The notes under the pieces are model-generated. The model was not told the DNA's origin. It ran no database searches and saw nothing but the letters and a program-made list of their open reading frames with translations. Shown here piece after piece: positions 854 through 10,970 of a stretch of DNA of 39,163 bases. Each line of letters starts with the position of its first letter. Position 1 is the first letter of the stretch. The DNA comes from Kayfunavirus PDP351P4. The position numbers and the translations under genes were made by a program. The stretch lies in the sequence record OZ035749.1; one strand, written 5' to 3'.

Positions 854-2613
854 GTAAAGACTTAGTGGCGCGGCAGGCGCTAATGACTACGCGTATGAAG
901 GCAGACTTCGTGTTCTTCCTGTTCGTCCTGTGGAAAGCTCTGTCACTCCCAGTCCCGACTCGCTGTCAGATTGACATGGCGAAGAAACTATCGGCTGGGG
1001 ACAACAGGCGCTTCATCCTACAGGCGTTCCGTGGTATCGGGAAGTCCTTCATTACGTGTGCCTTCGTTGTCTGGAAGCTATGGAACAACCCAGACTTGAA
1101 GTTCATGATTGTGTCGGCCTCAAAGGAACGAGCCGATGCTAACTCCATCTTCATCAAGCGAATCATCGACCTCATGCCTCAGCTTCAGGAACTCAAACCT
1201 AAGCAGGGACAGCGAGATGCGGTTATCAGCTTCGACGTTGGACCAGCCAAGCCAGACCACTCACCTTCGGTTAAGTCCGTTGGTATCACTGGTCAGTTGA
1301 CTGGTAGCCGTGCTGACATCCTGATTGCCGATGACGTGGAGGTTCCGAACAACTCAGCGACTCAGGCTGCACGAGACCGTCTATCAGAGCTTGTGAAAGA
1401 GTTCGACGCTATCCTGAAGCCGGGAGGTACGATCATCTATCTAGGTACTCCTCAGAACGAGATGACCTTGTATCGTGAGCTGGAAGGTCGTGGATATACC
1501 ACTACTATCTGGCCAGCTCGTTATCCACGCGACAGGAAGGACTGGCAGTCTTACGGCGACCGTCTGGCACCGATGCTTCAGGCAGAGCTTGAAGAGGACC
1601 CTGAGGCCTTCTACTGGCGTCCGACCGATGAAGTACGATTCGATGATACGGACCTGAAGGAACGTGAGCTGTCCTATGGTAAAGCTGGCTTCGCTCTACA
1701 GTTCATGCTTAACCCGAACCTGAGTGATGCCGAGAAGTACCCTCTGAAGCTCCGTGACCTTATCGTAGCAGACTTGGACCCAGCATCCAGCCCAATGGTC
1801 TACCAATGGTTGCCAAACCCTCAGAACAAGCGTGAGGACGTTCCTAACGTTGGACTCATGGGTGACTCATACCACACGTATCAGACTGTAGGTTCTGCCT
1901 TCAGTTCGTACACCCAGAAGATTCTGGTCATTGACCCTAGTGGTCGTGGTAAGGATGAAACTGGCTATGCGGTACTATACCAGCTCAACGGCTACATCTT
2001 CGCTATGGAAGTTGGTGGTATGCGCGGTGGTTATGAAGACTCTACTCTGGAAGCTCTAGCTAAGATTGGTCGTAAGTGGAAGGTCAACGAATACGTCATT
2101 GAGGGTAACTTCGGTGATGGTATGTACCTTGAGCTATTCAAGCCTGTAGCGGCCCGTATTCATCCTGCTGCTGTAACTGAAGTGAAGAGTAAGGGTCAGA
2201 AGGAACTCCGCATCTGTGACGTTCTGGAGCCTATCATGGGGTCTCACCGACTTATCGTTAACGCTGCTGCTATCGTCCAAGATTACCAGTCGGCCTCTGA
2301 TAAGGATGGTGTTCGTAACCCTATCTACTCTCTCTTCTACCAGATGACGCGTATCTCTCGTGAACGTGGAGCCTTGGCACACGATGACCGACTTGATGCT
2401 CTGGCTATCGGTGTACAGTTCTTCGTTGAGTCTATGGCTAAGGATGCCAACAAAGGCGAACGTGAAGTCACTGAGGAGTGGCTGGAGGAACAGATGGAGA
2501 ACCCACGGAAAGGCTTCGAGTCCATCCACACTGAGTTCTGGGACAATGGGGTCCGGGTAACCCACGATACGGACGACGAGCCGGGGCTAGGGTCCTACGT
2601 TACGTTCCACTAG
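850..2613 (+). CDS. DNA packaging protein B / large terminase subunit (T7 gp19-like)
   Basis: 587 aa (T7 gp19 about 586); Walker A-like GIGKS near the N-terminus; start overlaps the 18.5 stop. Confidence 0.93.
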
Positions 2614-2707
2614 CTGAATGAATAACTATGGGTGAAAGCTGCATGAATACGCAGTTAGTAACCTATGGTTACTACCAGTCTAACCTACTGTTTTACAAGG
2701 AGTTTGG

Positions 2708-2731
2708 ACTTAACTATCACTATAGGGAAGA
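2708..2731 (+). promoter_or_regulatory. phage RNAP promoter (phiOR-like position, after gene 19)
   Basis: TTAACTATCACTATAGGGAAG matches the 11-copy promoter family in this window. Confidence 0.65.
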
Positions 2732-2909
2732 CCCCCGGTTACTTATAGTATTACTGTAGTGAATATACATATGCAGACTTTATGCAAGACCTTAGGAGGC
2801 AGACTCCGAGTTCTTACCTAAGGCTTGCACCGATGGAAGGAGGTGATATTAATCATAATACCTCCAATACAGATAGTCACCGACCATAGATACAGGAGGT
2901 ATGTAGCAT

Positions 2910-3068
2910 ATGGAAAAGACCAAAGCTGTACTTAAAGCTCTGGCGACCAATCGAGCTACATACAGGTTTCTTGCTGCTGTTCTACTTGCTGCTGGCGTTA
3001 CTGCTGGAAGTCAGTGGGTCAGGTGGGTCGAGACCCTCGTATGTTCTCTGGTGTCTGAGTGTAATTAA
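2910..3068 (+). CDS. gene 19.5-like small membrane protein
   Basis: 52 aa; AGGAGG RBS 8 nt upstream; RATYRFLAAVLLAAG resembles the T7 gp19.5 RVTYRFLVV motif; last gene before the genome end in T7. Confidence 0.6.
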   Translation: MEKTKAVLKALATNRATYRFLAAVLLAAGVTAGSQWVRWVETLVCSLVSECN

Positions 3069-3101
3069 CGCAATCATGGTAACGATTCATGAGCGGAAGA
3101 C

Positions 3102-3145
3102 CTAAGGTCAGTACGTGGATAAAGACTCACTCTACTGACCTTAGC
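3102..3145. other. perfect 12-bp inverted repeat (CTAAGGTCAGTA ... TACTGACCTTAG) forming a hairpin with 20-nt loop in the genome-end region
   Basis: read directly; the two arms are exact reverse complements; function not assigned (terminator, RNA processing or packaging signal). Confidence 0.6.
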
Positions 3146-3497
3146 TACTGTAGTCAAGGACTTTAGGTAACACCTTAATAGAAGCTCACTTAGGGTCATC
3201 CTACTTACTGGTCTATCCTAGTGTCGCCTGACCTACGGTCCTTGACCTACAGTGGCTGTGGCCTACAGCAGTGACGATGAGTTTTGGACCAAAAGTTTGA
3301 GACCACATCTCACAGTTCAAGAACCTCAAGTCTCCCCATAGGCCCTCTTTCAGTCCAGACCAAAGGCCCTACCCCAGTCTATCATAAGGTTGGACCGATG
3401 GTCAATACTTAAGGTCGACGATAGGTCTAGGCTATGGCTGGAGGTCAGGACGATAGGTAGGGACTATTGGTCTTCTTTGAGTCTCTATCTGTATCAG

Positions 3498-3610
3498 ACC
3501 ATAGGTCACAACCATAGGTCACAACCATAAGTCATAACCTACATCTCACAACCATAAGTCATAACCTACAGCCTCAACCATAAGACACCTACAGTCTAAA
3601 CCTACAGTTA
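3498..3610. repeat. tandem array of about 8 degenerate 13-14 bp units (ACCATAGGTCACA / ACCATAAGTCATA / ACCTACAGCCTCA ...) in the genome-end/left-end region
   Basis: read directly; first two units are identical; related ACCTACRG units also at about 3231-3270. Confidence 0.7.
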
Positions 3611-3720
3611 ATAGACACAATGGCTATAGACTTAAGGTCTAAGACGTGTTAGTCAAAGACTATATCCTCTTACACCATGGGGCCGACGATGGCTCAATCA
3701 ATATTATTTCAACTTACCTA

Positions 3721-3750
3721 TTGACTATAGGTCTCGACTATGGCCTAATA
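3721..3750 (+). promoter_or_regulatory. candidate host sigma70 early promoter (weak)
   Basis: TTGACT at 3721 with a poor -10 (CCTAAT/CTAATA) about 17-18 bp downstream. Confidence 0.25.
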
Positions 3751-3860
3751 GCTTCCGTCAACACGACACGGCAACAACCGGATAGTGAAGACGCCGTGTC
3801 ATCCCGGTTAAGTAGACAGCCTGATAAGTCATACGAACAACAGGCAGATGACAGAAGTAG

Positions 3861-3895
3861 TTGACAAGATGTAAGACTTAACGTAGTATGATTCA
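3861..3895 (+). promoter_or_regulatory. candidate host sigma70 early promoter (A-type)
   Basis: TTGACA (3861-3866), 17-bp spacer, TAGTAT (3884-3889); upstream of gene 0.3 where T7 carries A1-A3. Confidence 0.5.
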
Positions 3896-3928
3896 CCAAG
3901 TAGTACAGCAAGCGAGTTAAGAAAGTGA

Positions 3929-3963
3929 TTGACAAGCTGGTTTGACTGTAGTAACTTATACGA
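3929..3963 (+). promoter_or_regulatory. candidate host sigma70 early promoter (A-type, weaker -10)
   Basis: TTGACA (3929-3934), 17-bp spacer, TAACTT (3952-3957). Confidence 0.35.
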
Positions 3964-4080
3964 CAAGCAAGATTAGTGAGTCCCAACACTGAAACGGGAT
4001 AGCACGGCGACGACAGCCAATGCGAATGCTCTTTAACAATTTGGATAAACTCTTAATGTGCGCCGATAGCGACTAACTAC

Positions 4081-4110
4081 AGGGTCTTTGAGTCTACATC
4101 TGAAGGCCCT
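4081..4110 (+). promoter_or_regulatory. RNase III-site-like hairpin variant upstream of gene 0.3 (R0.3 position)
   Basis: AGGGTC ... GGCCCT stem with wobble pairing, same architecture as the AAGGTCA/TGGCCTT elements. Confidence 0.35.
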
Positions 4111-4155
4111 GACTGATAGTCACTAACACATACTTAACTTTGAGAGGATATAACT

Positions 4156-4488
4156 ATGGAACGTAACGCTAACGCATACTATGACCTGCTGGCTGCAACC
4201 GTTGAAGCATTTAACGAGCGTATTCAGTGCGACGAAATAGCTGAAGGCGATGACTACTGCGATGCGCTGCATGAAGTCGTAGACGGTCAGGTTCCGCACT
4301 ATTACCACGAGATTTTCACGGTGATGGCTGCGGATGGTATCGACCACGAGTTCGAAGACTCTGGGCTGATGCCTGAGACCACGGACGTAACGCGTATACT
4401 ACAAGCTCGCATCTATGAGGCACTGTATAACGATGTGTCTAATAGCTCGGATGTAGTTTGGTTTGAGGCTGAAGAGGACTGCGAGTGA
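4156..4488 (+). CDS. ocr: Ocr, anti-restriction DNA-mimic protein (T7 gp0.3-like)
   Basis: 110 aa, acidic; [43 protein letters not shown] aligns closely with remembered T7 Ocr ([43 protein letters not shown]); first early gene. Confidence 0.9.
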   Translation: [110 protein letters not shown]

Positions 4489-4649
4489 TGGTAACTTATG
4501 GTCTCTACCAGCACCACGTAACCAACGCCCGGATTATGGTCAAGACCGGGCAGTTTAAGCATGACACGATGTTAGAGTTCCTGAAAGCGGTCTACGAGGG
4601 CCGCAAACGTATTCACGATAGTCTACACGCTGAGGATAAAACACAATGA
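4488..4649 (+). CDS. small early protein, unknown function (gene 0.4-0.6 region)
   Basis: 53-aa ORF whose ATG overlaps the ocr stop (TGATG); translationally coupled chain of small ORFs typical of T7 class I genes. Confidence 0.4.
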   Translation: MVTYGLYQHHVTNARIMVKTGQFKHDTMLEFLKAVYEGRKRIHDSLHAEDKTQ

Positions 4650-4795
4650 AACGATACGCTATACACATTCCGGGATGGTGTTACACAATGACTTGCTACG
4701 GATACAATGAGAGAGATGCGCGGTCTCGCTTCCGCGATCAGCAAGGATTCGGTAAACGTCTGCCTAATGGTACAGCTATCTGGGAGATTGACTAA
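4646..4795 (+). CDS. small early protein, unknown function
   Basis: 49-aa ORF with ATGA overlap to the previous ORF. Confidence 0.4.
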   Translation: MKRYAIHIPGWCYTMTCYGYNERDARSRFRDQQGFGKRLPNGTAIWEID

Positions 4796-4796
4796 C

Positions 4797-4922
4797 ATGT
4801 ACCAGATAACTTATAGCAGTGAACAGGAGTTCTACGATGGGTGCTACGAGATGATGAAGCGCGGGGCTTGCTACGTGGCTAATCACCATAGCCTGACCAT
4901 AACGCTGACAGGCGGGTACTGA
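4797..4922 (+). CDS. small early protein, unknown function
   Basis: 41-aa ORF (MYQITYSSEQEFYDGCYEMMKRGACY...) starting 1 nt after the previous stop; C-terminal part of track ORF 4707..4922. Confidence 0.35.
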   Translation: MYQITYSSEQEFYDGCYEMMKRGACYVANHHSLTITLTGGY

Positions 4923-4933
4923 GTGATAGACGA

Positions 4934-4959
4934 GAGGTCATCGACTGATAGGTGGCCTC
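4934..4959 (+). promoter_or_regulatory. RNase III processing-site-like hairpin (R0.5 position)
   Basis: GAGGTCA ... TGGCCTC stem, same architecture as the sites at 314, 9167 and 16194. Confidence 0.45.
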
Positions 4960-5078
4960 AAAGATTACCACTTGCATTAATAGGGGTTAACTATGAGTGT
5001 GGGATATTGGGTATGCCTAGCGCCAGTTATCTTGCTGATAGGGTATGGGCTATACGATTGTATTAAACGGAAATCACT

Positions 5079-5276
5079 ATGAGTCTTGCACTATTGATAG
5101 CAATAGGCTATGGACTTATCGCCTACATGCTGGTGAGAGACATCAACAAGGCACGTAAAGTCTACAAATTCAACTATGTACGTCTGGGCCGCTGGACTGT
5201 ACGTCAACCTAACGGACGATTCATGCGCAACTTAGCGAACGTCTGGGATATAGCAACACTTGGGAGCAAACTGTAA
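5079..5276 (+). CDS. small early membrane-like protein, unknown function
   Basis: 65 aa with hydrophobic N-terminus (LALLIAIGYGLIAYMLV) and basic C-terminal part. Confidence 0.45.
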   Translation: MSLALLIAIGYGLIAYMLVRDINKARKVYKFNYVRLGRWTVRQPNGRFMRNLANVWDIATLGSKL

Positions 5277-5602
5277 TGAGCAAGTCTTACGGGATTAATC
5301 TGGTACACTCTATGGACGCAGAAATGAACATGTTAAGCCTACTGGCTACCGGGTATCGTCACGGAACGTCAAGTCACTCCGCACGTCAACAGCAGGAGAG
5401 GGACCGGGTACTGCAAGCAAGACTCCGGGCTGAGGGCCATAAGTCCGAACTGATGTGTCTGGCGTATGGTGGACAACCAATCACCGAAGATGGTAAACTT
5501 CTGGTCTCAGGCTGGAAGGCGATAGACCAACGGTCAACCATCAAGCACACGACTCACGGTGACTTCAGTCATCTTCATGCTAACCCGCTGATATGCAAGT
5601 AA
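5276..5602 (+). CDS. early protein, unknown function (occupies the gene 0.7 position but much shorter than the T7 0.7 kinase)
   Basis: 108-aa ORF, start overlaps the previous stop; no kinase motifs recognised. Confidence 0.45.
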   Translation: MSKSYGINLVHSMDAEMNMLSLLATGYRHGTSSHSARQQQERDRVLQARLRAEGHKSELMCLAYGGQPITEDGKLLVSGWKAIDQRSTIKHTTHGDFSHLHANPLICK

Positions 5603-5617
5603 CTCTGACTTAACTAT

Positions 5618-5641
5618 CACTATAGGACTCAAGGTCTAAGA
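5618..5641 (+). promoter_or_regulatory. phage RNAP promoter immediately upstream of the RNAP gene
   Basis: TTAACTATCACTATAGGACTC, about 65 bp upstream of the gene 1 ATG; followed by a GACTCAAGGTC RNase III-like motif. Confidence 0.65.
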
Positions 5642-5699
5642 CTCCAAGTGAAAGACCAAAGAGACTTTAAGTGAAAGACTAATAACAAGGACTTTAAGT

Positions 5700-8381
5700 A
5701 TGAGCGTCATCTCTATTGATAAGCACGACTTCTCTGATGTGTCAAGCGCCATTGAGCCGTTTAACCTGCTGGCTGACCACTACGGGCAAGACCTTGCAGT
5801 CAAACAGCTTCAGCTTGAGCATGAGGCATACACTGAAGGCGAGCGACGTTTCATCAAGAACCTTGAGCGACAGACTGAGCGCGGGGAACTGGCAGACAAT
5901 CAGGTCGCCAAGCCTTTGATGCAGACTCTTGTACCTAAGATTGCGCAAGCCGTCAGGGAGTGGCATGAAGGTCCAGACGGGAAGCTGTCAACCTCTCGTC
6001 CTAGCGTAGCGTTCACCATGTTGAGCACTGAAGAGAAGGCCGTTAAAGATCGCTCTCTACGCATCTCCTGTGAGTCTGCTGCGGTTATCATACTGAAGGT
6101 CATCCTCTCCAAGCTGGTCAAGCCTGAAGGGATACCGATTACACCGATGGCCTCCGCGATAGGTCGCACACTTGAGGACGAAATCCGCTTCGGTCGCATC
6201 CGTGATAAGGAGAAGGAGCACTTCAAGAAGGCGATAGCTGAGAACCTGAACAAGCGTGCCGGGGCATCCTACAAGAAAGCCTACATGCAAGCGGTTGAGA
6301 CATCCATGCTGGAGCAGGGTCAACTGGAAGATGCGTGGGGGACTTGGAGTCCTACCGAGGCGGTACACGTTGGCATCAAGATGCTTGAGATTGTCATCCA
6401 GTCTACACAACTGGTCGAGCTTAAGCGGTACGGTGCTGGCAATGCAGCGGCTGACGTAGAGATGGTCCACCTGTCAGACTTCTGGGTAAAGAAGATGGCA
6501 CAACGAGGATTCAGCCTTGCGGGTATCGCTCCAGTATACCAACCTTGCGTCGTTCCACCTAAGCCGTGGACTGGTGTCGTAGGCGGGGGGTACTGGGCTA
6601 AAGGTCGCAGACCGCTACCACTGATTCGCTTAGGGTCTAAGTCTGCGGTGGCACGTTACGAAGACGTGTACATGCCTGAAGTCTATGACGCTGTGAATAT
6701 CATCCAGAATACACCTTGGAAAGTGAACAAGAAGGTTCTGGACGTGGTGAACATGGTCGAGAAGTTGAACAACACGCCTATTGATGACATCCCTCAGATG
6801 GAGCCACTGAAGCCTGAAGACTATGCGGGCGAGACTGAAGAGGAACTCAAGGCATGGAAGAAGGCTGCTGCTGGTATCTACCGCCGAGAGAAGGCCCGGC
6901 AGTCACGCAGATTGTCACTGAGCTTTATAGTTAACCAAGCGAACAAGTTCTCTCAGTTCAAAGCCATCTGGTTCCCGTATAACATGGACTGGCGCGGTCG
7001 CGTCTACGCTGTGCCGATGTTCAACCCTCAGGGTAACGACATGCAAAAGGGTCTCCTGACTCTGGCAGTCGGTAAGCCTATTGGTGCTGATGGTTTCAAA
7101 TGGCTGAAGGTCCACGGTGCAAACTGCGCGGGTATTGATAAAGTAACCTTCGAGGAGCGCATCAAGTGGGTGGAAGACAACCACGATAACATCATGGCTA
7201 CCGCTAAGGCACCGATGGATAGCATTGAGTGGTGGGGCAAGTTAGACTCTCCGTTCTGCTTCCTTGCGTTCTGCTTCGAGTATGCTGGCGTAATGCACCA
7301 CGGTTTGTCTTACTCCTGCTCGCTGCCGATAGCTTTCGATGGGTCCTGCTCTGGGATTCAGCACTTCAGCGCGATGCTTCGTGATCACATCGGTGGACAT
7401 GCAGTAAACCTGACGCCATCCGGTAAGGTCCAAGATATCTACCGCATCGTGTCTGACCGAATTGAGGAGGAGCTTAAAGTCCTTCTGGTTAACGGTACGG
7501 ATAACGAGATGGTGACTCACGAGGACAAGAAAACGGGTGAGATTACCGAGCGTCTCAAGCTGGGGACACGAGAGCTGGCCCGTCAGTGGCTGACCTACGG
7601 TATGTCTCGCAAGGTCACTAAGCGTTCAGTCATGACTCTGGCCTACGGGTCAAAAGAGTATGGCTTCGCAGACCAAGTGTACGAGGACATCGTGATGCCA
7701 GCGATTGACTCAGGGTCTGGCGCTATGTTCACTGAACCAAGCCAAGCGTCTCGCTTCATGGCTAAGATGATTTGGGAAGCTGTGAGCGTGACCGTAGTTG
7801 CTGCGGTTGACGCGATGAAGTGGCTTCAAGGTGCCGCCAAGCTGCTGGCTGCTGAAGTGAAGGACAAGAAGACTGGAGAAATCCTGAAGCCTTGCCTTCC
7901 GGTACACTGGGTAACACCTGATGGTTTCCCGGTCTGGCAGGAATACCGCAAGAAGGATACCACTCGTCTGAACCTGATGTTCTTAGGGTCATTCAACCTT
8001 CAGCCTACAGTCAACAAAGGCACGAAGAAAGAGCTGGACAAGCACAAGCAGGAGTCAGGCATTAGCCCGAACTTCGTCCACTCACAAGATGGAAGCCACC
8101 TACGCAAGACTGTAGTCCACACTCACCGCAAGTATGGCGTGATGTCATTCGCAGTGATTCACGATAGCTTCGGGACCATCCCGGCTGACGCTGAGTTCCT
8201 GTTCAAGGGAGTCCGTGAGACGATGGTCGAGACATACCGCGACAACGATGTGCTGCTGGACTTCTACGAGCAGTTTGAATACCAGCTTCATGAGAGCCAG
8301 CGCGACAAGTTGCCTGAGCTTCCGAAGAAAGGTAAACTGAATATAGAAGACATCTTGTCTTCAGACTTTGCATTCGCTTAA
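5700..8381 (+). CDS. single-subunit DNA-directed RNA polymerase (T7 gp1-like)
   Basis: 893 aa (T7 RNAP 883 aa); gene 1 position; C-terminus ends FAFA as in T7 RNAP; read as T7 RNAP-like along its length. Confidence 0.96.
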   Translation: MSVISIDKHDFSDVSSAIEPFNLLADHYGQDLAVKQLQLEHEAYTEGERRFIKNLERQTERGELADNQVAKPLMQTLVPKIAQAVREWHEGPDGKLSTSRPSVAFTMLSTEEKAVKDRSLRISCESAAVIILKVILSKLVKPEGIPITPMASAIGRTLEDEIRFGRIRDKEKEHFKKAIAENLNKRAGASYKKAYMQAVETSMLEQGQLEDAWGTWSPTEAVHVGIKMLEIVIQSTQLVELKRYGAGNAAADVEMVHLSDFWVKKMAQRGFSLAGIAPVYQPCVVPPKPWTGVVGGGYWAKGRRPLPLIRLGSKSAVARYEDVYMPEVYDAVNIIQNTPWKVNKKVLDVVNMVEKLNNTPIDDIPQMEPLKPEDYAGETEEELKAWKKAAAGIYRREKARQSRRLSLSFIVNQANKFSQFKAIWFPYNMDWRGRVYAVPMFNPQGNDMQKGLLTLAVGKPIGADGFKWLKVHGANCAGIDKVTFEERIKWVEDNHDNIMATAKAPMDSIEWWGKLDSPFCFLAFCFEYAGVMHHGLSYSCSLPIAFDGSCSGIQHFSAMLRDHIGGHAVNLTPSGKVQDIYRIVSDRIEEELKVLLVNGTDNEMVTHEDKKTGEITERLKLGTRELARQWLTYGMSRKVTKRSVMTLAYGSKEYGFADQVYEDIVMPAIDSGSGAMFTEPSQASRFMAKMIWEAVSVTVVAAVDAMKWLQGAAKLLAAEVKDKKTGEILKPCLPVHWVTPDGFPVWQEYRKKDTTRLNLMFLGSFNLQPTVNKGTKKELDKHKQESGISPNFVHSQDGSHLRKTVVHTHRKYGVMSFAVIHDSFGTIPADAEFLFKGVRETMVETYRDNDVLLDFYEQFEYQLHESQRDKLPELPKKGKLNIEDILSSDFAFA

Positions 8382-8393
8382 TAGGAGAGAGTT

Positions 8394-8594
8394 ATGAAAT
8401 TTGCACACAAGCAGACTGGCATTAAGGGTGGGACTCAAATCGTGACCGTAACAGAACACAACGGAAAGGGTCTGGTGAAGACCACAGTCATCCCTACCGA
8501 GATGTCAAAACAGCTTAAAGTCCCATTCAAGTGGCTGGTGCAGCAGGTTGAGCAGGCACACAAGCAAGCTCTTAAAGAGGCGGCAACCAAATGA
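8394..8594 (+). CDS. hypothetical protein (insertion between gene 1 and gene 1.1)
   Basis: 66-aa ORF with AGGAGAG RBS; no T7 counterpart at this position. Confidence 0.5.
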   Translation: MKFAHKQTGIKGGTQIVTVTEHNGKGLVKTTVIPTEMSKQLKVPFKWLVQQVEQAHKQALKEAATK

Positions 8595-8672
8595 CAGACC
8601 TACAGTTACTGGCCTTGTGGCTAGGAGCACTCGCAGTATTCACTTTAATCCAACGCAGAAGAGGTTAACCCT

Positions 8673-9143
8673 ATGTTCGGTAAGTCAAAACTTAAAGCAC
8701 AAATCAAAGAGTTGAACATGAAGGTGGCATACTTGGAGCGAGCCATAGAGGCCCGGGACAAGGACAATGAGCGGCTGAAGGATAAGCTCGCTGAATCCGA
8801 GCGTAAGCGCCTAACGCCACCAGCTGCTGTAACTGTCAAGCGTATGGTTGGCATCAAGTTCAAGGCACTGTTCGACGGGATGTACCAACCGACTGAGTTC
8901 AAGACTGGACCGGGTAACTGCGGTAAGAACGTTAAGCACTTCACAACATCGAAGACTGAGCGCACCATTACCATTCACCAGCACCACGTAGACGGGTCTC
9001 AGAAAGACTTTGAGTATCGACTTAGCGACATAGACGGTCGCATCCAGTATGACTACGAGATGATTAAGGTCTATGGCGAGGAGGCCGAACGTGAGCGAGA
9101 GCTTCAGGCAGCCATGCGGATAAGGCCGAAAATCCTCTTCTAA
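8673..9143 (+). CDS. hypothetical protein with N-terminal coiled-coil-like region (insertion between gene 1 and gene 1.1)
   Basis: 156-aa ORF; charged heptad-like N-terminus (KAQIKELNMKVAYLERAIEARDKDNERLKDKLAESERKR); no T7 counterpart. Confidence 0.5.
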   Translation: MFGKSKLKAQIKELNMKVAYLERAIEARDKDNERLKDKLAESERKRLTPPAAVTVKRMVGIKFKALFDGMYQPTEFKTGPGNCGKNVKHFTTSKTERTITIHQHHVDGSQKDFEYRLSDIDGRIQYDYEMIKVYGEEAERERELQAAMRIRPKILF

Positions 9144-9162
9144 ACTATCACTATAGGATTAG
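9139..9162 (+). promoter_or_regulatory. phage RNAP promoter (phi1.1 position)
   Basis: CTAAACTATCACTATAGGATT. Confidence 0.7.
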
Positions 9163-9166
9163 ACTC

Positions 9167-9193
9167 AAGGTCATGACTCAAAGTCGTGGCCTT
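9167..9193 (+). promoter_or_regulatory. RNase III processing-site-like hairpin (R1.1 position)
   Basis: AAGGTCA ... TGGCCTT stem with 13-nt loop, immediately downstream of the promoter. Confidence 0.5.
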
Positions 9194-9231
9194 CATGATC
9201 AACCCTAACTCATTCAATCAGGAGCTACACC

Positions 9232-9411
9232 ATGTATCAGAACACTATCAACTTCGAGCGCATCCGTGAACGTCAGCAGACTGAAGGTTACATTCCTAAG
9301 GGTCGCAAGCTGAACAAGACCAAACGTGGAGGCGGCATCAAGGGCGCTTTCCGTAACGCTGAAGGCAAAGACTCTCTGGTCAACCAAGAGAAATACTTCG
9401 TAGGAGCATAA
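9232..9411 (+). CDS. gene 1.1-like small basic protein
   Basis: 59-aa ORF (below the 60-aa track cutoff) with CAGGAG RBS; KGRKLNKTKRGGG matches the KGRKLNKTKR motif remembered from T7 gp1.1. Confidence 0.6.
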   Translation: MYQNTINFERIRERQQTEGYIPKGRKLNKTKRGGGIKGAFRNAEGKDSLVNQEKYFVGA

Positions 9412-9415
9412 CCAA

Positions 9416-9679
9416 ATGGGCCGACTTTATAGTGGCAACCTCAACGCTTTCAGAGCTGCATGTAACAGGCTTTATCAGTTAGACTTCGCTGTTATATCTC
9501 AGGAGTTTCAAGACCCTGCGTCACGCCAAGAGTGCATGAAACTCAGGGTGGAGGACCGAGCTGGTAACATCTTCGCGCTTGAGAACTTCGCACACTACGA
9601 TGAAGACGTGCTGTACAACACTGCAACAGACTTCCTTAACGGTCTCGCTGACCGACTCAACACATGGAGTAAATCATAA
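9416..9679 (+). CDS. gene 1.2 product, host dGTPase inhibitor (T7 gp1.2-like)
   Basis: 87 aa (T7 gp1.2 is 85); begins MGRLYSGNLNAFRAA, closely matching the T7 gp1.2 N-terminus (MGRLYSGNLAAFKAA) and aligning across the length. Confidence 0.8.
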   Translation: MGRLYSGNLNAFRAACNRLYQLDFAVISQEFQDPASRQECMKLRVEDRAGNIFALENFAHYDEDVLYNTATDFLNGLADRLNTWSKS

Positions 9680-10752
9680 TGACAACTATCAAAACCAACC
9701 CGCACCGCGCTGTAGATTACTCTGAGTCTGGCATTAAGAAGGCACTAGCTGCTGCCGGGTCTCTAGAAGCTGAAGTTAAATATGACGGTGTGCGCCTGAA
9801 TCTACCGGTCCTGAGTGAAGGTGAGACATACTGGCTGAGCCGTGCGTCTAAGCCTCTTCCAGCCTTGGAGTGGATGAACTCTGAGTTAGGGAATGCGTGG
9901 ACACAAGCTGACTGGAGATGGTTCCTGCGTCAAGCTGGCTACGAAGGTGTGGGCCTGATGATTGATGGCGAGGTCATGGTCAAAGGTGTGGACTTCAACA
10001 CCTCCGCAGGTCTCATCCGAACGAAGTGGCTCAAGCCTAGCAACGAGGAGTTCGCTGAATGCTATCCGGGCCGTGGCAATAAGGTCCCGTTCTGGGTTGC
10101 GCGGTCACGACTTCAGGTTGTGGTTTACGGTGTCGTCGACATGACAACCATTGCTGACCCGAAAGCCGAAGGTCCTATCCACAGCGTAACCCGACTGAAG
10201 GCCGAAGCTATCGTACCTCTCCTCCAGAAATACTTCCCGGAAATCGACTGGGTTCTGTCTGAGTCGCACACGGTCTATGACCTTGAGTCGCTCAACTCCC
10301 TGTACGAAGAGAAGCGTCTGGAAGGACACGAGGGTCTGGTAGTAAAGGACCCACTTGGCAAATACAAGCGTGGCAAGAAGTCAGGCATGTGGAAGATGAA
10401 GCCTGAGGAGACCATCGACGGGACCGTATGCGGCCTCGTGTGGGGGACTCCGGGTAAGGCCAACGAAGGCAAGGTCATTGGCTTTGAGGTGCTGCTTGAG
10501 GATGGCATGGTGGTCAATGCTTGTGGCCTGACTGAAGAACAGAAGAACGAGTTCACGGCAGAAGTATTTAACCGCAATGGGATTGACTCCCAGCGCGAGT
10601 ACGAGGAATTGCTTTGTATTGAGACTTTCAACCCTTACGGCGGGTGGCAGTGTGAAGTCCTCTTCATGGAGCGGTTCCCTGATGGCTCCCTTCGTCATCC
10701 CAGCTTCAAGTGCTGGCGTGGAACGGAAGACAATCCAACGGTGAAATCATGA
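9679..10752 (+). CDS. ATP-dependent DNA ligase (T7 gp1.3-like)
   Basis: 357 aa (T7 ligase 359); adenylation motif KYDGVR present (AEVKYDGVRLN). Confidence 0.9.
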   Translation: MTTIKTNPHRAVDYSESGIKKALAAAGSLEAEVKYDGVRLNLPVLSEGETYWLSRASKPLPALEWMNSELGNAWTQADWRWFLRQAGYEGVGLMIDGEVMVKGVDFNTSAGLIRTKWLKPSNEEFAECYPGRGNKVPFWVARSRLQVVVYGVVDMTTIADPKAEGPIHSVTRLKAEAIVPLLQKYFPEIDWVLSESHTVYDLESLNSLYEEKRLEGHEGLVVKDPLGKYKRGKKSGMWKMKPEETIDGTVCGLVWGTPGKANEGKVIGFEVLLEDGMVVNACGLTEEQKNEFTAEVFNRNGIDSQREYEELLCIETFNPYGGWQCEVLFMERFPDGSLRHPSFKCWRGTEDNPTVKS

Positions 10753-10928
10753 TCACACAACTTTATGTCGACACGGCAAGCGGTCAACTCTACGCAGTAG
10801 TAAACGGTGAGCTGTGGTATCGCCAACGCAAGAAGTGGGCCAAGTCCTACTACGACGAAGAGACAATATCAACCATGAGTCATCGCTACCGAAAGGCTGC
10901 TAAGGTGAACAACTTTAAGATGCGTTAA
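10749..10928 (+). CDS. small hypothetical protein (gene 1.4/1.5 position)
   Basis: 59 aa from the ATG overlapping the ligase stop (ATGA); N-terminal part of track ORF 10710..10928 is rejected as overlap. Confidence 0.4.
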   Translation: MITQLYVDTASGQLYAVVNGELWYRQRKKWAKSYYDEETISTMSHRYRKAAKVNNFKMR

Positions 10929-10930
10929 CG

Positions 10931-10970
10931 TCAACCCAGTGGTCTTATGACTGCTGGGTTTCTTTGCGTC
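10931..10970 (+). terminator. candidate intrinsic terminator (early terminator TE-like)
   Basis: AACCCAG ... CTGGGTT 7-bp perfect stem (extendable with mismatches) followed by TTCTTTG; located downstream of the ligase region as T7 TE. Confidence 0.5.

Follow-up and report, generated by a model that had tools for sequence, protein, structure and literature searches.

ORF66 and a homologue of T3 gene 1.05 between the RNA polymerase gene and gene 1.1 of a Kayfunavirus

We analysed the region between the RNA polymerase gene and gene 1.1 in a 39,163-nt stretch of DNA from Kayfunavirus PDP351P4 (OZ035749.1), which is referred to throughout as the window. The genome is a Kayfunavirus of the K1F/EcoDS1 group. 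Gene 1 (5700..8381) encodes an 893-aa single-subunit phage RNA polymerase with 90-99% identity to the polymerases of K1F, EcoDS1 and yong1. It is followed by ORF66 (66 aa, 8394..8594; phrog_8082), for which a Shine-Dalgarno sequence, AGGAG, was read at 8383..8387, 6 nt upstream of the ATG. A conserved 78-nt spacer (8595..8672) separates ORF66 from a 156-aa ORF (8673..9143, stop codon 9141-9143) that encodes a homologue of T3 gp1.05 and is preceded by the Shine-Dalgarno sequence AAGAGG (8659-8664), 8 nt upstream of its ATG. The downstream boundary is gene 1.1 (9232..9411; PF08200, E 6.1e-11; phrog_4383, E 7.7e-42). All of these features, from gene 1 to gene 1.1, are on the + strand, and gene 1.2 (PF10922) occupies 9416-9679. 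Both ORFs were found where a preliminary description of this DNA had placed them, each with a well-placed ribosome-binding site (RBS), and both are missing from T7, as it had said.

The phage RNA polymerase promoter core, ACTATCACTATAGG, is present in exactly nine copies in the whole window, for which chance alone would give 3.2 matches when up to three mismatches are permitted. One exact match (5613..5626, + strand; context CTTAACTATCACTATAGGAC) lies immediately 5' of gene 1 and is the nearest phage promoter able to drive gene 1, ORF66 and gp1.05. Between 5626 and 9144 no phage promoter was found, even with three mismatches permitted. A phi1.1-type promoter (9139..9161, + strand, covering -17 to +6 with +1 at 9156 and an exact core at 9144-9157) overlaps the gp1.05 stop codon; a promoter overlapping the end of 1.05 is also found in EcoDS1, T3 and phiSG-JL2. 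It is followed by an R1.1-type hairpin (9167..9193, + strand; 12-pair stem, -16.1 kcal/mol, z -4.7), a candidate RNase III site that aligns with the annotated T3 R1.1 RNase III site, and then by gene 1.1. A copy related to this hairpin lies at 294-357.

No + strand terminator was found upstream of ORF66 and gp1.05, and sigma-70-like early promoters lie upstream, for example at 3861-3889. The early transcription unit that holds both genes closes at a TE-like early terminator hairpin followed by a T-rich tract (10933..10960, + strand; -20.8 kcal/mol, z -5.6), and the EcoDS1 annotation puts TE at the same place, 3' of gene 1.3. Because there is neither a phage promoter between 5626 and 9144 nor an upstream + strand terminator, ORF66 and gp1.05 must be read from upstream transcripts. 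The preliminary description was therefore sound in placing a phi1.1-type promoter after the two ORFs and in having them expressed from upstream. Host RNA polymerase would produce early transcripts that run through both genes and end at TE after the ligase gene, and the phage polymerase could start at the 5613 promoter and read through both. As a structured RNA the spacer at 8595-8672 gave an insignificant predicted fold (z +0.68), and no Rfam family matched within 8200-9500.

The 156-aa ORF matched PF25755 (Phage_T3_1_05) with 86.5 bits against a cut-off of 27 (E 1.2e-24), its residues 58-128 covering profile positions 2-73 of 73, and matched phrog_8103 with E 1.4e-60. These profile matches identify it as T3 gene 1.05 in its Kayfunavirus form. 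PF25755 was the sole domain in 96 of 96 matches to the profile, and the 245 clusters of gp1.05 homologues are nearly all of fixed length and on contigs of ~40 kb. The annotated gp1.05 of EcoDS1 is a direct orthologue, with 86.5% identity and the same order and spacing, and T3 gp1.05 (phrog_8103/6379) is 35% identical to the protein over the core and shares its conserved motif. T3 and phiSG-JL2 share the order gene 1, 1.05, phi1.1 overlapping the end of 1.05, R1.1, 1.1 and 1.2. The gene analysed here sits at this ancestral Studiervirinae position, between gene 1 and phi1.1/R1.1/gene 1.1. T3 gp1.05 is a 90-aa protein consisting of the core only, whereas the protein here is extended by a coiled coil of 50 residues and by a helix at the C-terminus, like the 169-aa gp1.05 of phiSG-JL2. 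T3 also has its own phi1.05 promoter and its primary origin just upstream of 1.05, whereas ORF66 lies there in this genome and there is no promoter. An upstream phi1.05 promoter is likewise present in AP5 and phiSG-JL2. This promoter is a feature of Teetrevirus genome organisation and not a trait of the protein family, so that family membership is unaffected by its absence here.

The PF25755 core is strongly conserved among phages of Enterobacteria, Pseudomonas, Sphingomonas, Aeromonas and Ralstonia. Genes of this family lie 3' of the RNA polymerase gene in Teetrevirus, Kayfunavirus and Berlinvirus, and directly 5' of it in Pifdecavirus and in an integrated T7-like prophage. They are found away from it in Pienvirus, in Scottvirus, where the homologue is between the primase/helicase genes and the DNA polymerase gene, and in a T5-like phage, where it belongs to an early block near the dNMPase gene.

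The preliminary description had presented the two ORFs as an insertion, and this part of it did not survive. Rather than being peculiar to this genome, the arrangement is the standard Kayfunavirus layout, with ORF66 homologues in ~219 phage records; the 156-aa gene is a T3 gene 1.05 homologue at T3's position; and the polymorphism seen within Kayfunavirus looks like loss of gp1.05 rather than gain. The accompanying remark that neither protein resembles a recognised T7 protein is correct for T7 but fails for T3, given the relationship of the 156-aa ORF to gene 1.05.

Full-length gp1.05 was found in 83 records, compared with 219 for ORF66, and is carried by ~40% of Kayfunavirus records. In a spread sample of 60 of the 215 records, 35 had an identical empty junction and 25 were occupied. 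Kayfunaviruses that have no gp1.05, K1F included, show a clean 470-bp gap and keep an orphan RBS. The K1F sequence corresponds to the window up to 8669, a single c, and the window from 9141 onwards, so that the RBS and the TAA/promoter are retained. Its spacer is identical to 8595-8672 over the full length despite a differing ORF66 3' end, and, taken jointly, the 3' 35 nt of the spacer and the promoter reach 95% identity or more in 213 of 215 records. Because the empty gap keeps an orphan RBS, loss of gp1.05 is, on these alignments, more likely than gain within Kayfunavirus. The gene would then be an accessory one, lost from the rest of the genus by a clean 470-bp deletion. Since the flanks are identical in Kayfunaviruses with and without gp1.05, natural isogenic pairs exist, and these make its function cheap to test. 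The BASEL collection holds one Kayfunavirus only.

ORF66 is covered end to end by phrog_8082 (E 5.6e-39, residues 1-66 on profile positions 1-66 of 66), and searches against Pfam gave zero matches at E up to 1. Its 154 homologue clusters, like those of gp1.05, are nearly all of fixed length and on ~40 kb contigs. The unnamed 66-71-aa ORFs of K1F, EcoDS1 and CR44b are direct orthologues (74-94% identity, same order and spacing), although in EcoDS1 and one further locus, L015, an extra ORF of ~76 aa separates the ORF66 homologue from gene 1. Identity across the compared related loci was 50-89%, and two divergent allele classes were recognised, at ~75-94% and ~44-55% identity. The protein is very basic (pI 10.1, net charge ~+7), with a confidently predicted fold of three beta strands followed by two helices. 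ORF66 is a genus-wide small basic alpha/beta protein, conserved across Kayfunavirus. It most likely binds nucleic acid or an acidic host protein, we suggest. In comparison with the AP2/integrase-type beta3-alpha DNA-binding fold, only generic beta3-alpha substructures were matched. Two database labels on ORF66 homologues were rejected: "gp1.1" in EcoDS1, since ORF66 has no PF08200 match and the true gene 1.1 of the window is 9232-9411, and "1.05" in CR44b, which is unsupported.

The AlphaFold model of gp1.05 (pLDDT 85) begins with a leucine-zipper-like helix at residues 2-47 (8676..8813; pLDDT 77-92 for this block), presumed to be a dimerisation module. A six-stranded antiparallel beta domain follows at residues 53-133 (8829..9071), forming the PF25755 core, and then a C-terminal helix at residues 135-150 (9075..9122), all encoded on the + strand. 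The heptad positions L7, I11, L14, V18, L21, I25, L35 and L39 are compatible with a zipper; the modelled helix and this register agree with the coiled-coil-like N-terminus that the preliminary description had noticed. In the homologue alignment the N-terminus occurs as alternative sequence types that have been exchanged between lineages, and the tail past residue 150 is variable. Of the 53 family representatives, at least 14 carry a transmembrane helix at the N-terminus with a coiled coil behind it, and T3 and many other members, at 75-110 aa, are core only, with neither element.

The conserved core motif is F76-K-x-G79-x-G81-x-C83-G-K ... Q103-x-[H/C]105-x-D107-G ... K111-x-F113-x-Y115 ... 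G122-R123. All 53 representatives have the same residue at seven positions (G79, C83, V87, Q103, F113, G122 and R123), D107 occurs in 51 of them, and position 105 is His in 35, Cys in 15 and Thr in 3. The protein analysed here has all of the family residues (G79, C83, V87, Q103, [H/C]105, D107, K111, F113, Y115, G122 and R123). Candidate metal ligands in the core (C83, [H/C]105 and D107) number only two or three per chain, and the closeness of C83 to H105 was reasoned from the strand topology of the predicted fold. No convincing structural match to the beta domain was found. SH3/Sm/Tudor-like small beta barrels scored no higher than noise, given the size of the domain, and the gp1.05 domain, with six long meander strands predicted, gives no sequence signal for such a relationship.

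Searches of Pfam, PHROGs, NCBIfam and PADLOC returned nothing for either protein beyond PF25755, phrog_8103 and phrog_8082. Neither protein matched any family of defence-system components in PADLOC-DB at E up to 1, and PDB sequence searches with single sequences and a profile gave no homologue. An HNH or homing endonuclease, the identity that the preliminary description had named as contrary to its reading, was checked for, and no nuclease domain appeared in Pfam, PHROGs, NCBIfam or PDB sequence searches. Several other identities for gp1.05 were rejected. The GxGxCGK[T] motif does not behave as a Walker A P-loop: K85 is replaced in 9 of 53 representatives (by Leu in 6), residue 86 may be T, N, E, V, D or Y, and the motif lies in a loop of an all-beta domain; the sole P-loop trace was a kinesin P-loop match with E 0.41. 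A cysteine-protease-like arrangement of Cys, His, Gln and Asp was put aside in view of the Cys and Thr residues found at position 105. The GenBank label "microtubule-binding protein", attached to the homologues of yong1, TM1 and others, found no significant family match; there were sub-threshold coiled-coil matches only (TMF, ERM and TACC at 11-16 bits against cut-offs of 30-40, confined to residues 4-45). P0285, a 588-aa match in the representative search, is a repeat protein matched by chance through a GACGG motif.

To assess selection we compared 11-12 related phage loci, a limit set by the IMG/VR search, which gave only 8 close loci. The dN/dS values were 0.18 for ORF66, 0.19 for gp1.05 and 0.105 for the gp1.05 core domain; gene 1 and ligase gave 0.07 and 0.21, respectively. 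Both ORF66 and gp1.05 are under purifying selection. Residues 2-47 of gp1.05 evolve fast, with a dN/dS of 0.39 against 0.105 for the core. Identity across the related loci was 60-87% for gp1.05, 93-98% for gp1.1 and 90-99% for RNA polymerase. ORF66 and gp1.05 are genuine genes of the early region, translated, and part of the normal Kayfunavirus gene set. We are highly confident of the identity, ancestry and expression route of the two genes taken jointly.

Evidence on function comes from T3, where two ligase-deletion lines were evolved on a ligase-defective host (PMC2696425). One of these, line A, deleted 5659-6041, comprising phi1.05, 1.05 and phi1.1, and the other fixed the change F22S in 1.05; both changes were rated strictly compensatory for the loss of ligase, and T3 gene 1.05 is dispensable (PMC2696425). 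Because the line A deletion also took two promoters and the annotated primary origin, only F22S speaks for gp1.05 itself. T3 F22 aligns with F63 of the gp1.05 analysed here, a conserved residue in the IKF strand. This single missense change is thin evidence for a link between gp1.05 and ligase. A tie to DNA metabolism is also suggested by the neighbourhood of the homologues in Scottvirus and in the T5-like phage described above. We found no published paper that gives gp1.05 a function.

Our best reading is that ORF66 and gp1.05 are non-essential early modulators and that gp1.05 is tied to DNA metabolism. We propose that the N-terminal leucine zipper would join two gp1.05 chains in a parallel dimer; in many relatives a transmembrane helix would instead tether the protein to the cytoplasmic face of the inner membrane. 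The dimer would display two small beta domains, on which the conserved loops GxGxCGK and Q-x-[H/C]-x-DG would make up a site, perhaps one holding a metal, that binds a target linked to DNA metabolism. Such an activity would be dispensable and would turn costly once DNA ligase limits. gp1.05 would then belong to the functional class of gp1.2, modulating DNA transactions of the host or the phage without being essential, and would not be a housekeeping enzyme. When identity, ancestry, expression and mechanism are combined, this explanation as a whole falls just on the probable side; the specific mechanism for gp1.05 is put forward tentatively and may well be wrong. A broader proposal, which we think unlikely to hold in full, is that PF25755 represents an uncharacterised fold and effector class of virulent phages, a Cys/His beta domain deployed as a zipper dimer or tethered to the membrane, which would hit DNA-nick, ligation or repair processes conserved in bacteria, or damage-sensing immunity, with ORF66 as a second, genus-specific effector that has a new target. 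If true, interference with DNA-nick or ligation processes would explain why T3 discards 1.05 when ligase limits.

We weighed this reading against several others. That the ORFs are chance reading frames or decaying, functionless remnants is almost certainly wrong: gp1.05 is dispensable in T3 (PMC2696425) and is missing from many relatives, but the purifying selection on both ORFs effectively refutes this idea, and their fixed length over hundreds of homologues, the well-placed Shine-Dalgarno sequence of each, confident fold predictions for both and the retention of the gp1.05 motif in distant genera also speak against it. A possible, though not probable, explanation is that one or both proteins are early counter-defence factors directed against an immunity system found in some hosts only. 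Both are early-region genes that evolve faster than the flanking core genes, gp1.05 comes and goes among near-identical phages and has an N-terminal module with elevated dN/dS, and ORF66 exists in two divergent allele classes. PF25755 has furthermore spread into unrelated early regions, including those of a T5-like phage and a T7-like prophage, and the nearby gene 1.2 itself encodes a host-protein inhibitor and PifA trigger (PMC11990801). However, in the searches described above neither protein was similar to any characterised anti-defence or defence-related family, and the sequences of both are absent from the supplements of the accessory-gene screen of Silas et al. The conservation of the PF25755 core across host groups suits a conserved target of the housekeeping type better than an immune protein restricted to certain strains, ORF66 is fixed genus-wide rather than variable, and the sole recorded phenotype, in T3, concerns ligase limitation and not defence.

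The proteins might alternatively serve the phage's own programme, as accessory factors that regulate the phage RNA polymerase, the switch from early to middle expression or initiation at the primary origin. PF25755 genes adjoin the RNA polymerase gene in three distinct arrangements, the T3 primary origin overlaps the start of gene 1.05, the primary origins of T3 and T7 fall within this interval, and both proteins are basic (pI 9.5 for gp1.05 and 10.1 for ORF66). We consider this quite unlikely, as T7 and ~60% of Kayfunaviruses do without gp1.05 despite nearly the same polymerases (93-99% identity) and promoters, the gene is not beside the RNA polymerase gene in Pienvirus, Scottvirus and the T5-like phage, and membrane-anchored relatives are hard to square with a polymerase or origin factor. 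Those same relatives suggest superinfection-exclusion or envelope factors acting at the cytoplasmic face of the inner membrane, from which the soluble coiled-coil form would be derived. In the representatives with a transmembrane helix, positive charges follow the helix and predict that the C-terminus is inside the cell, the coiled coil and core domain come after both, and gp1.05 is an early-expressed, accessory protein. The gp1.05 of this genome, however, has no hydrophobic segment, and the core-only form of T3 and many other members has neither transmembrane helix nor coiled coil, which leaves an envelope role very improbable.

These results correct the idea of a special insertion at this locus, together with the misleading labels "microtubule-binding protein", "gp1.1" for the ORF66 homologue and "1.05" in CR44b. 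PF25755 comprises compact domains specific to phages, which share a sharply conserved Cys/Gln/His/Asp/Arg signature and have no structural analogue; the N-termini of the proteins are modular: none, a coiled coil, or a transmembrane helix plus coiled coil. The family is tied genetically to ligase limitation by one published evolution experiment, and a function for gp1.05 would add to the still incomplete map of early functions in the T7 group. Other known proteins with which ORF66 and gp1.05 can be compared are gp1.2 of T7 and T3, a dGTPase inhibitor, and other small class I/II host-directed proteins of T7-like phages. There is no relationship to these in sequence or fold, but they belong to the same transcription unit and, like ORF66 and gp1.05, are small, non-essential, expressed early or in the middle period and variable between relatives; gp1.2 works by binding a host protein, and the other class I/II proteins are presumed to do so.

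ORF66 (8394–8594, 66 aa) and the 156-aa ORF (8673–9143) are real genes, and both lie exactly where the preliminary description had placed them. Its good ribosome binding sites were also borne out, with AGGAG 6 nt before ORF66 and AAGAGG 8 nt before the 156-aa ORF, both well spaced. Upstream, the RNA polymerase gene (gene 1, 893 aa) ends at 8381; from 9232 on, gene 1.1 (PF08200) and gene 1.2 (PF10922) are followed by ligase. Over 11–12 Kayfunavirus loci, dN/dS by the Nei-Gojobori method was 0.18 for ORF66 and 0.19 for the 156-aa ORF, compared with 0.07 for gene 1, 0.08 for gene 1.1 and 0.21 for ligase. Inside the 156-aa ORF the ratio was 0.39 for the coiled coil and 0.105 for the core domain. 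A search of 5.8 billion proteins yielded 154 clusters for ORF66 (exactly 66 aa in all but 4 of the 120 listed) and 245 for the 156-aa ORF, mostly from contigs of ~40 kb for both.

The 156-aa protein scored 86.5 bits (cut-off 27) against PF25755, 'Enterobacteria phage T3 gene 1.05 protein', and also matched phrog_8103. Its EcoDS1 orthologue is annotated gp1.05, and direct BLASTP against T3 gp1.05 gave 35% identity across the core. In the T3 record, gene 1 is followed by the phi1.05 promoter, the primary origin and gene 1.05, whose end is overlapped by the phi1.1 promoter; the RNase III site R1.1, 1.1 and 1.2 come next, and phiSG-JL2 has the same order. The 3′ half of the region is therefore T3-type synteny and holds no novelty. 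ORF66 had phrog_8082 as its only match (E 5.6e-39), with no Pfam family. By tblastn it was detected in 219 phage records, essentially the entire genus, in two allele classes of ~75–94% and ~44–55% identity, and it is fixed in Kayfunavirus. Database labels of both genes are unreliable: 'microtubule-binding protein' on gp1.05 homologues stems from sub-threshold coiled-coil matches, and the labels 'gp1.1' (EcoDS1) and '1.05' (CR44b) on the ORF66 homologue are both unsupported.

Megablast of 8300–9300 matched 222 phage records, led by Hafnia phage yong1 (90.7%), Escherichia phage Bas105 (89.4%) and EcoDS1 (88.2%), all of the genus Kayfunavirus in the T7 supergroup. Several public records appear mislabelled: near-identical Kayfunavirus sequences are filed under Enterococcus, Staphylococcus or Acinetobacter phages, and the T7-type polymerase is frequently called 'N4-like RNA polymerase'. 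Relative to the canonical T7-type map, the window is a circularly permuted genome sequence that opens with the late genes. ORFs of 87, 149 and 587 aa at 30–2613 have the sizes of genes 18, 18.5 and 19, the last (850–2613) being large-terminase-sized. A phage promoter follows at 2713, the early region begins only past ~3600 and gene 1 only at 5700. No terminal direct repeat of at least 60 nt was found in the window.

Exactly nine copies of the phage promoter core ACTATCACTATAGG are present in the window. One copy, at 9144–9157, overlaps the stop codon of the 156-aa ORF, so that a phi1.1-type promoter does follow both ORFs as had been described. A 12-pair hairpin after it (9167–9193, z −4.7) aligns with the annotated T3 R1.1 site. 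Expression of both genes from upstream transcripts, as originally proposed, agrees with the absence of a phage promoter core between 5626 and 9144 and of any + strand terminator-like site from 2600 to 9143. A sigma-70-like promoter lies at 3861–3889, an exact phage promoter core at 5613–5626, ~75 nt upstream of gene 1, and a strong terminator hairpin at 10933–10960, after ligase (z −5.6), where EcoDS1 annotates the early terminator TE. From this layout, read against the T7 paradigm, ORF66 and gp1.05 should be expressed first from early transcripts of the host polymerase and later from those initiated at 5613. The 5613–5626 promoter would allow the RNA polymerase to boost its own synthesis together with that of ORF66 and gp1.05; T7 is not known to have a phage promoter immediately ahead of its gene 1.

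Several other features were noted around this region. The 64-nt stretches at 294–357 and 9147–9210 are 75% identical, and each has a degenerate promoter-like sequence and then a strong hairpin (z −5.0 and −4.7, respectively). The former lies between the gene 18- and 18.5-sized ORFs and so resembles an RNase III site of the R18.5 type that is related to R1.1. A small ORF of ~59 aa (10750–10928, ATG at 10750) sits between ligase and the terminator hairpin. The slot of gene 1.2, the dGTPase inhibitor gene (9416–9679), is mosaic: among 11 related loci, a homologue of the window's gp1.2 was found in 2 only, yong1 and K1F, and the EcoDS1 ORF at this place ('unknown product') is unrelated. EcoDS1 also carries an additional ~76-aa ORF between gene 1 and its ORF66 homologue (1598–1828 of that locus), and an IMG/VR phage (L015) has ~250 extra nt at the same place, between the gene 1 end (~3455) and 3707. 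The gene 1 junction is therefore a second variable spot.

The preliminary description had taken the two genes for an insertion, which does not hold: both are ordinary Kayfunavirus occupants of this position, and gp1.05 belongs to a recognised T3-type family. Phage K1F has the ORF66 homologue and lacks gp1.05. Its sequence follows the window to 8669, has a single C and rejoins the window at 9141, so that the two differ by 470 bp, with a 1-nt microhomology. This empty site retains the Shine-Dalgarno sequence, now without a gene, and the TAA forming part of the promoter. Such a site could in principle reflect gain of gp1.05 by the other phages or its loss; because of the T3 synteny, loss is the more parsimonious explanation. 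Of 60 records sampled evenly from the 215 that match the K1F junction, 35 had the contiguous empty junction and 25 were occupied, in agreement with full-length gp1.05 in 83 records versus ORF66 in 219. Thus gp1.05 is an accessory gene kept by ~40% of the genus.

The AlphaFold model of gp1.05 (35 sequences, pLDDT 85) has a helix at residues 2–47, six antiparallel strands in 53–133 and a helix at 135–150. The coiled-coil-like N-terminus described earlier corresponds to this predicted single long helix over residues 2–47, with a clean heptad (L7, I11, L14, V18, L21, I25, L35, L39). The Foldseek matches in BFVD were all uncharacterised phage proteins belonging to this family, with hosts including Klebsiella, Pectobacterium, Dickeya, Pseudomonas, Ralstonia, Aeromonas and Delftia. 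Among 1.84 billion representatives, an exhaustive HMMER scan found only 61 relatives; a profile search found 96, with PF25755 as sole domain in all 96. G79, C83, V87, Q103, F113, G122 and R123 are invariant in 53/53 representatives, D107, K111 and Y115 occur in 51/53, and position 105 carries His (35 representatives), Cys (15) or Thr (3). The His/Cys alternation, together with the invariant Cys nearby, is suggestive of a site dependent on a metal or a thiol which, judging from topology, would be built by the strand 2–3 and 4–5 loops at the same edge of the meander sheet. A Walker A reading of GxGxCGKT was rejected as superficial, K85 and residue 86 being unconserved and the domain all-beta. 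Family members differ in their N-terminal module: the T3 protein and many others consist of the core alone (75–110 aa), the window type adds the coiled coil, and at least 14 of the 53 representatives have a transmembrane helix, then positive charges and a coiled coil, a layout from which a cytoplasmic domain anchored to the inner membrane is predicted.

PF25755 genes always lie among early or DNA-metabolism genes, without one fixed neighbour. They follow gene 1 in Teetrevirus, Kayfunavirus and Berlinvirus, directly precede it in Pifdecavirus, fall within the early block in Pienvirus, and in Scottvirus have the primase/helicase genes on one side and the DNA polymerase gene on the other. On a 160-kb bacterial contig (GCA_049897105.1; locus L016, 3240–11270), the gene directly precedes a T7-type RNA polymerase gene next to an integrase. 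With its Bro-N protein, ligase, RNA polymerase inhibitor, SSB, endonuclease I and amidase genes, this element looks like an integrated T7-like prophage. An 81-aa core-only protein is encoded in the early small-gene block of a T5-like phage (L017/L018, 8001–8246; contigs of up to ~115 kb with a T5-type dNMPase), and the domain therefore extends beyond T7-like phages.

The only functional data on gene 1.05 come from two ligase-deleted T3 lines evolved by Harcombe et al. on a ligase-defective host (PMC2696425). One acquired a deletion of 5659–6041, covering phi1.05, gene 1.05 and phi1.1, and in the other the gene 1.05 substitution F22S went to fixation; the two changes were classed as strictly compensatory, with no benefit when ligase was present (PMC2696425). 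T3 F22 aligns with F63 of the window protein in a conserved IKF strand, and F22S therefore probably causes loss of function. It follows that the phage can do without gene 1.05 under laboratory conditions and that the gene's activity is costly when ligation capacity is limiting. The deletion line is confounded, because two promoters and the origin were removed too. A host-takeover role for ORF66 and gp1.05 is plausible. For gp1.05 we favour, with low confidence, a link to DNA transactions over a dedicated anti-defense role. ORF66 (model pLDDT 92.6) has three strands and then two helices, a predicted fold that names no function; with a pI of 10.1 and a net charge of ~+7, binding to nucleic acid or an acidic protein is a reasonable guess.

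Both genes are normal for the genus and their novelty is low. The remaining value lies in a well-defined PF25755 signature without structural analogue and in the membrane-tethered variants, and natural variants with and without gp1.05 offer an easy genetic test. The 78-nt spacer before gp1.05 (8595–8672) is identical to K1F though the adjacent ORF66 3′ end differs, and 213/215 records share at least 95% identity over its 3′ half. The spacer, whose predicted RNA fold was not significant, may act in cis or mark a recombination joint. In T3 the annotated primary replication origin occupies the corresponding position, just before and into gene 1.05. T3 and AP5 have a phi1.05 promoter, whereas the window has no phage promoter between gene 1 and gp1.05.
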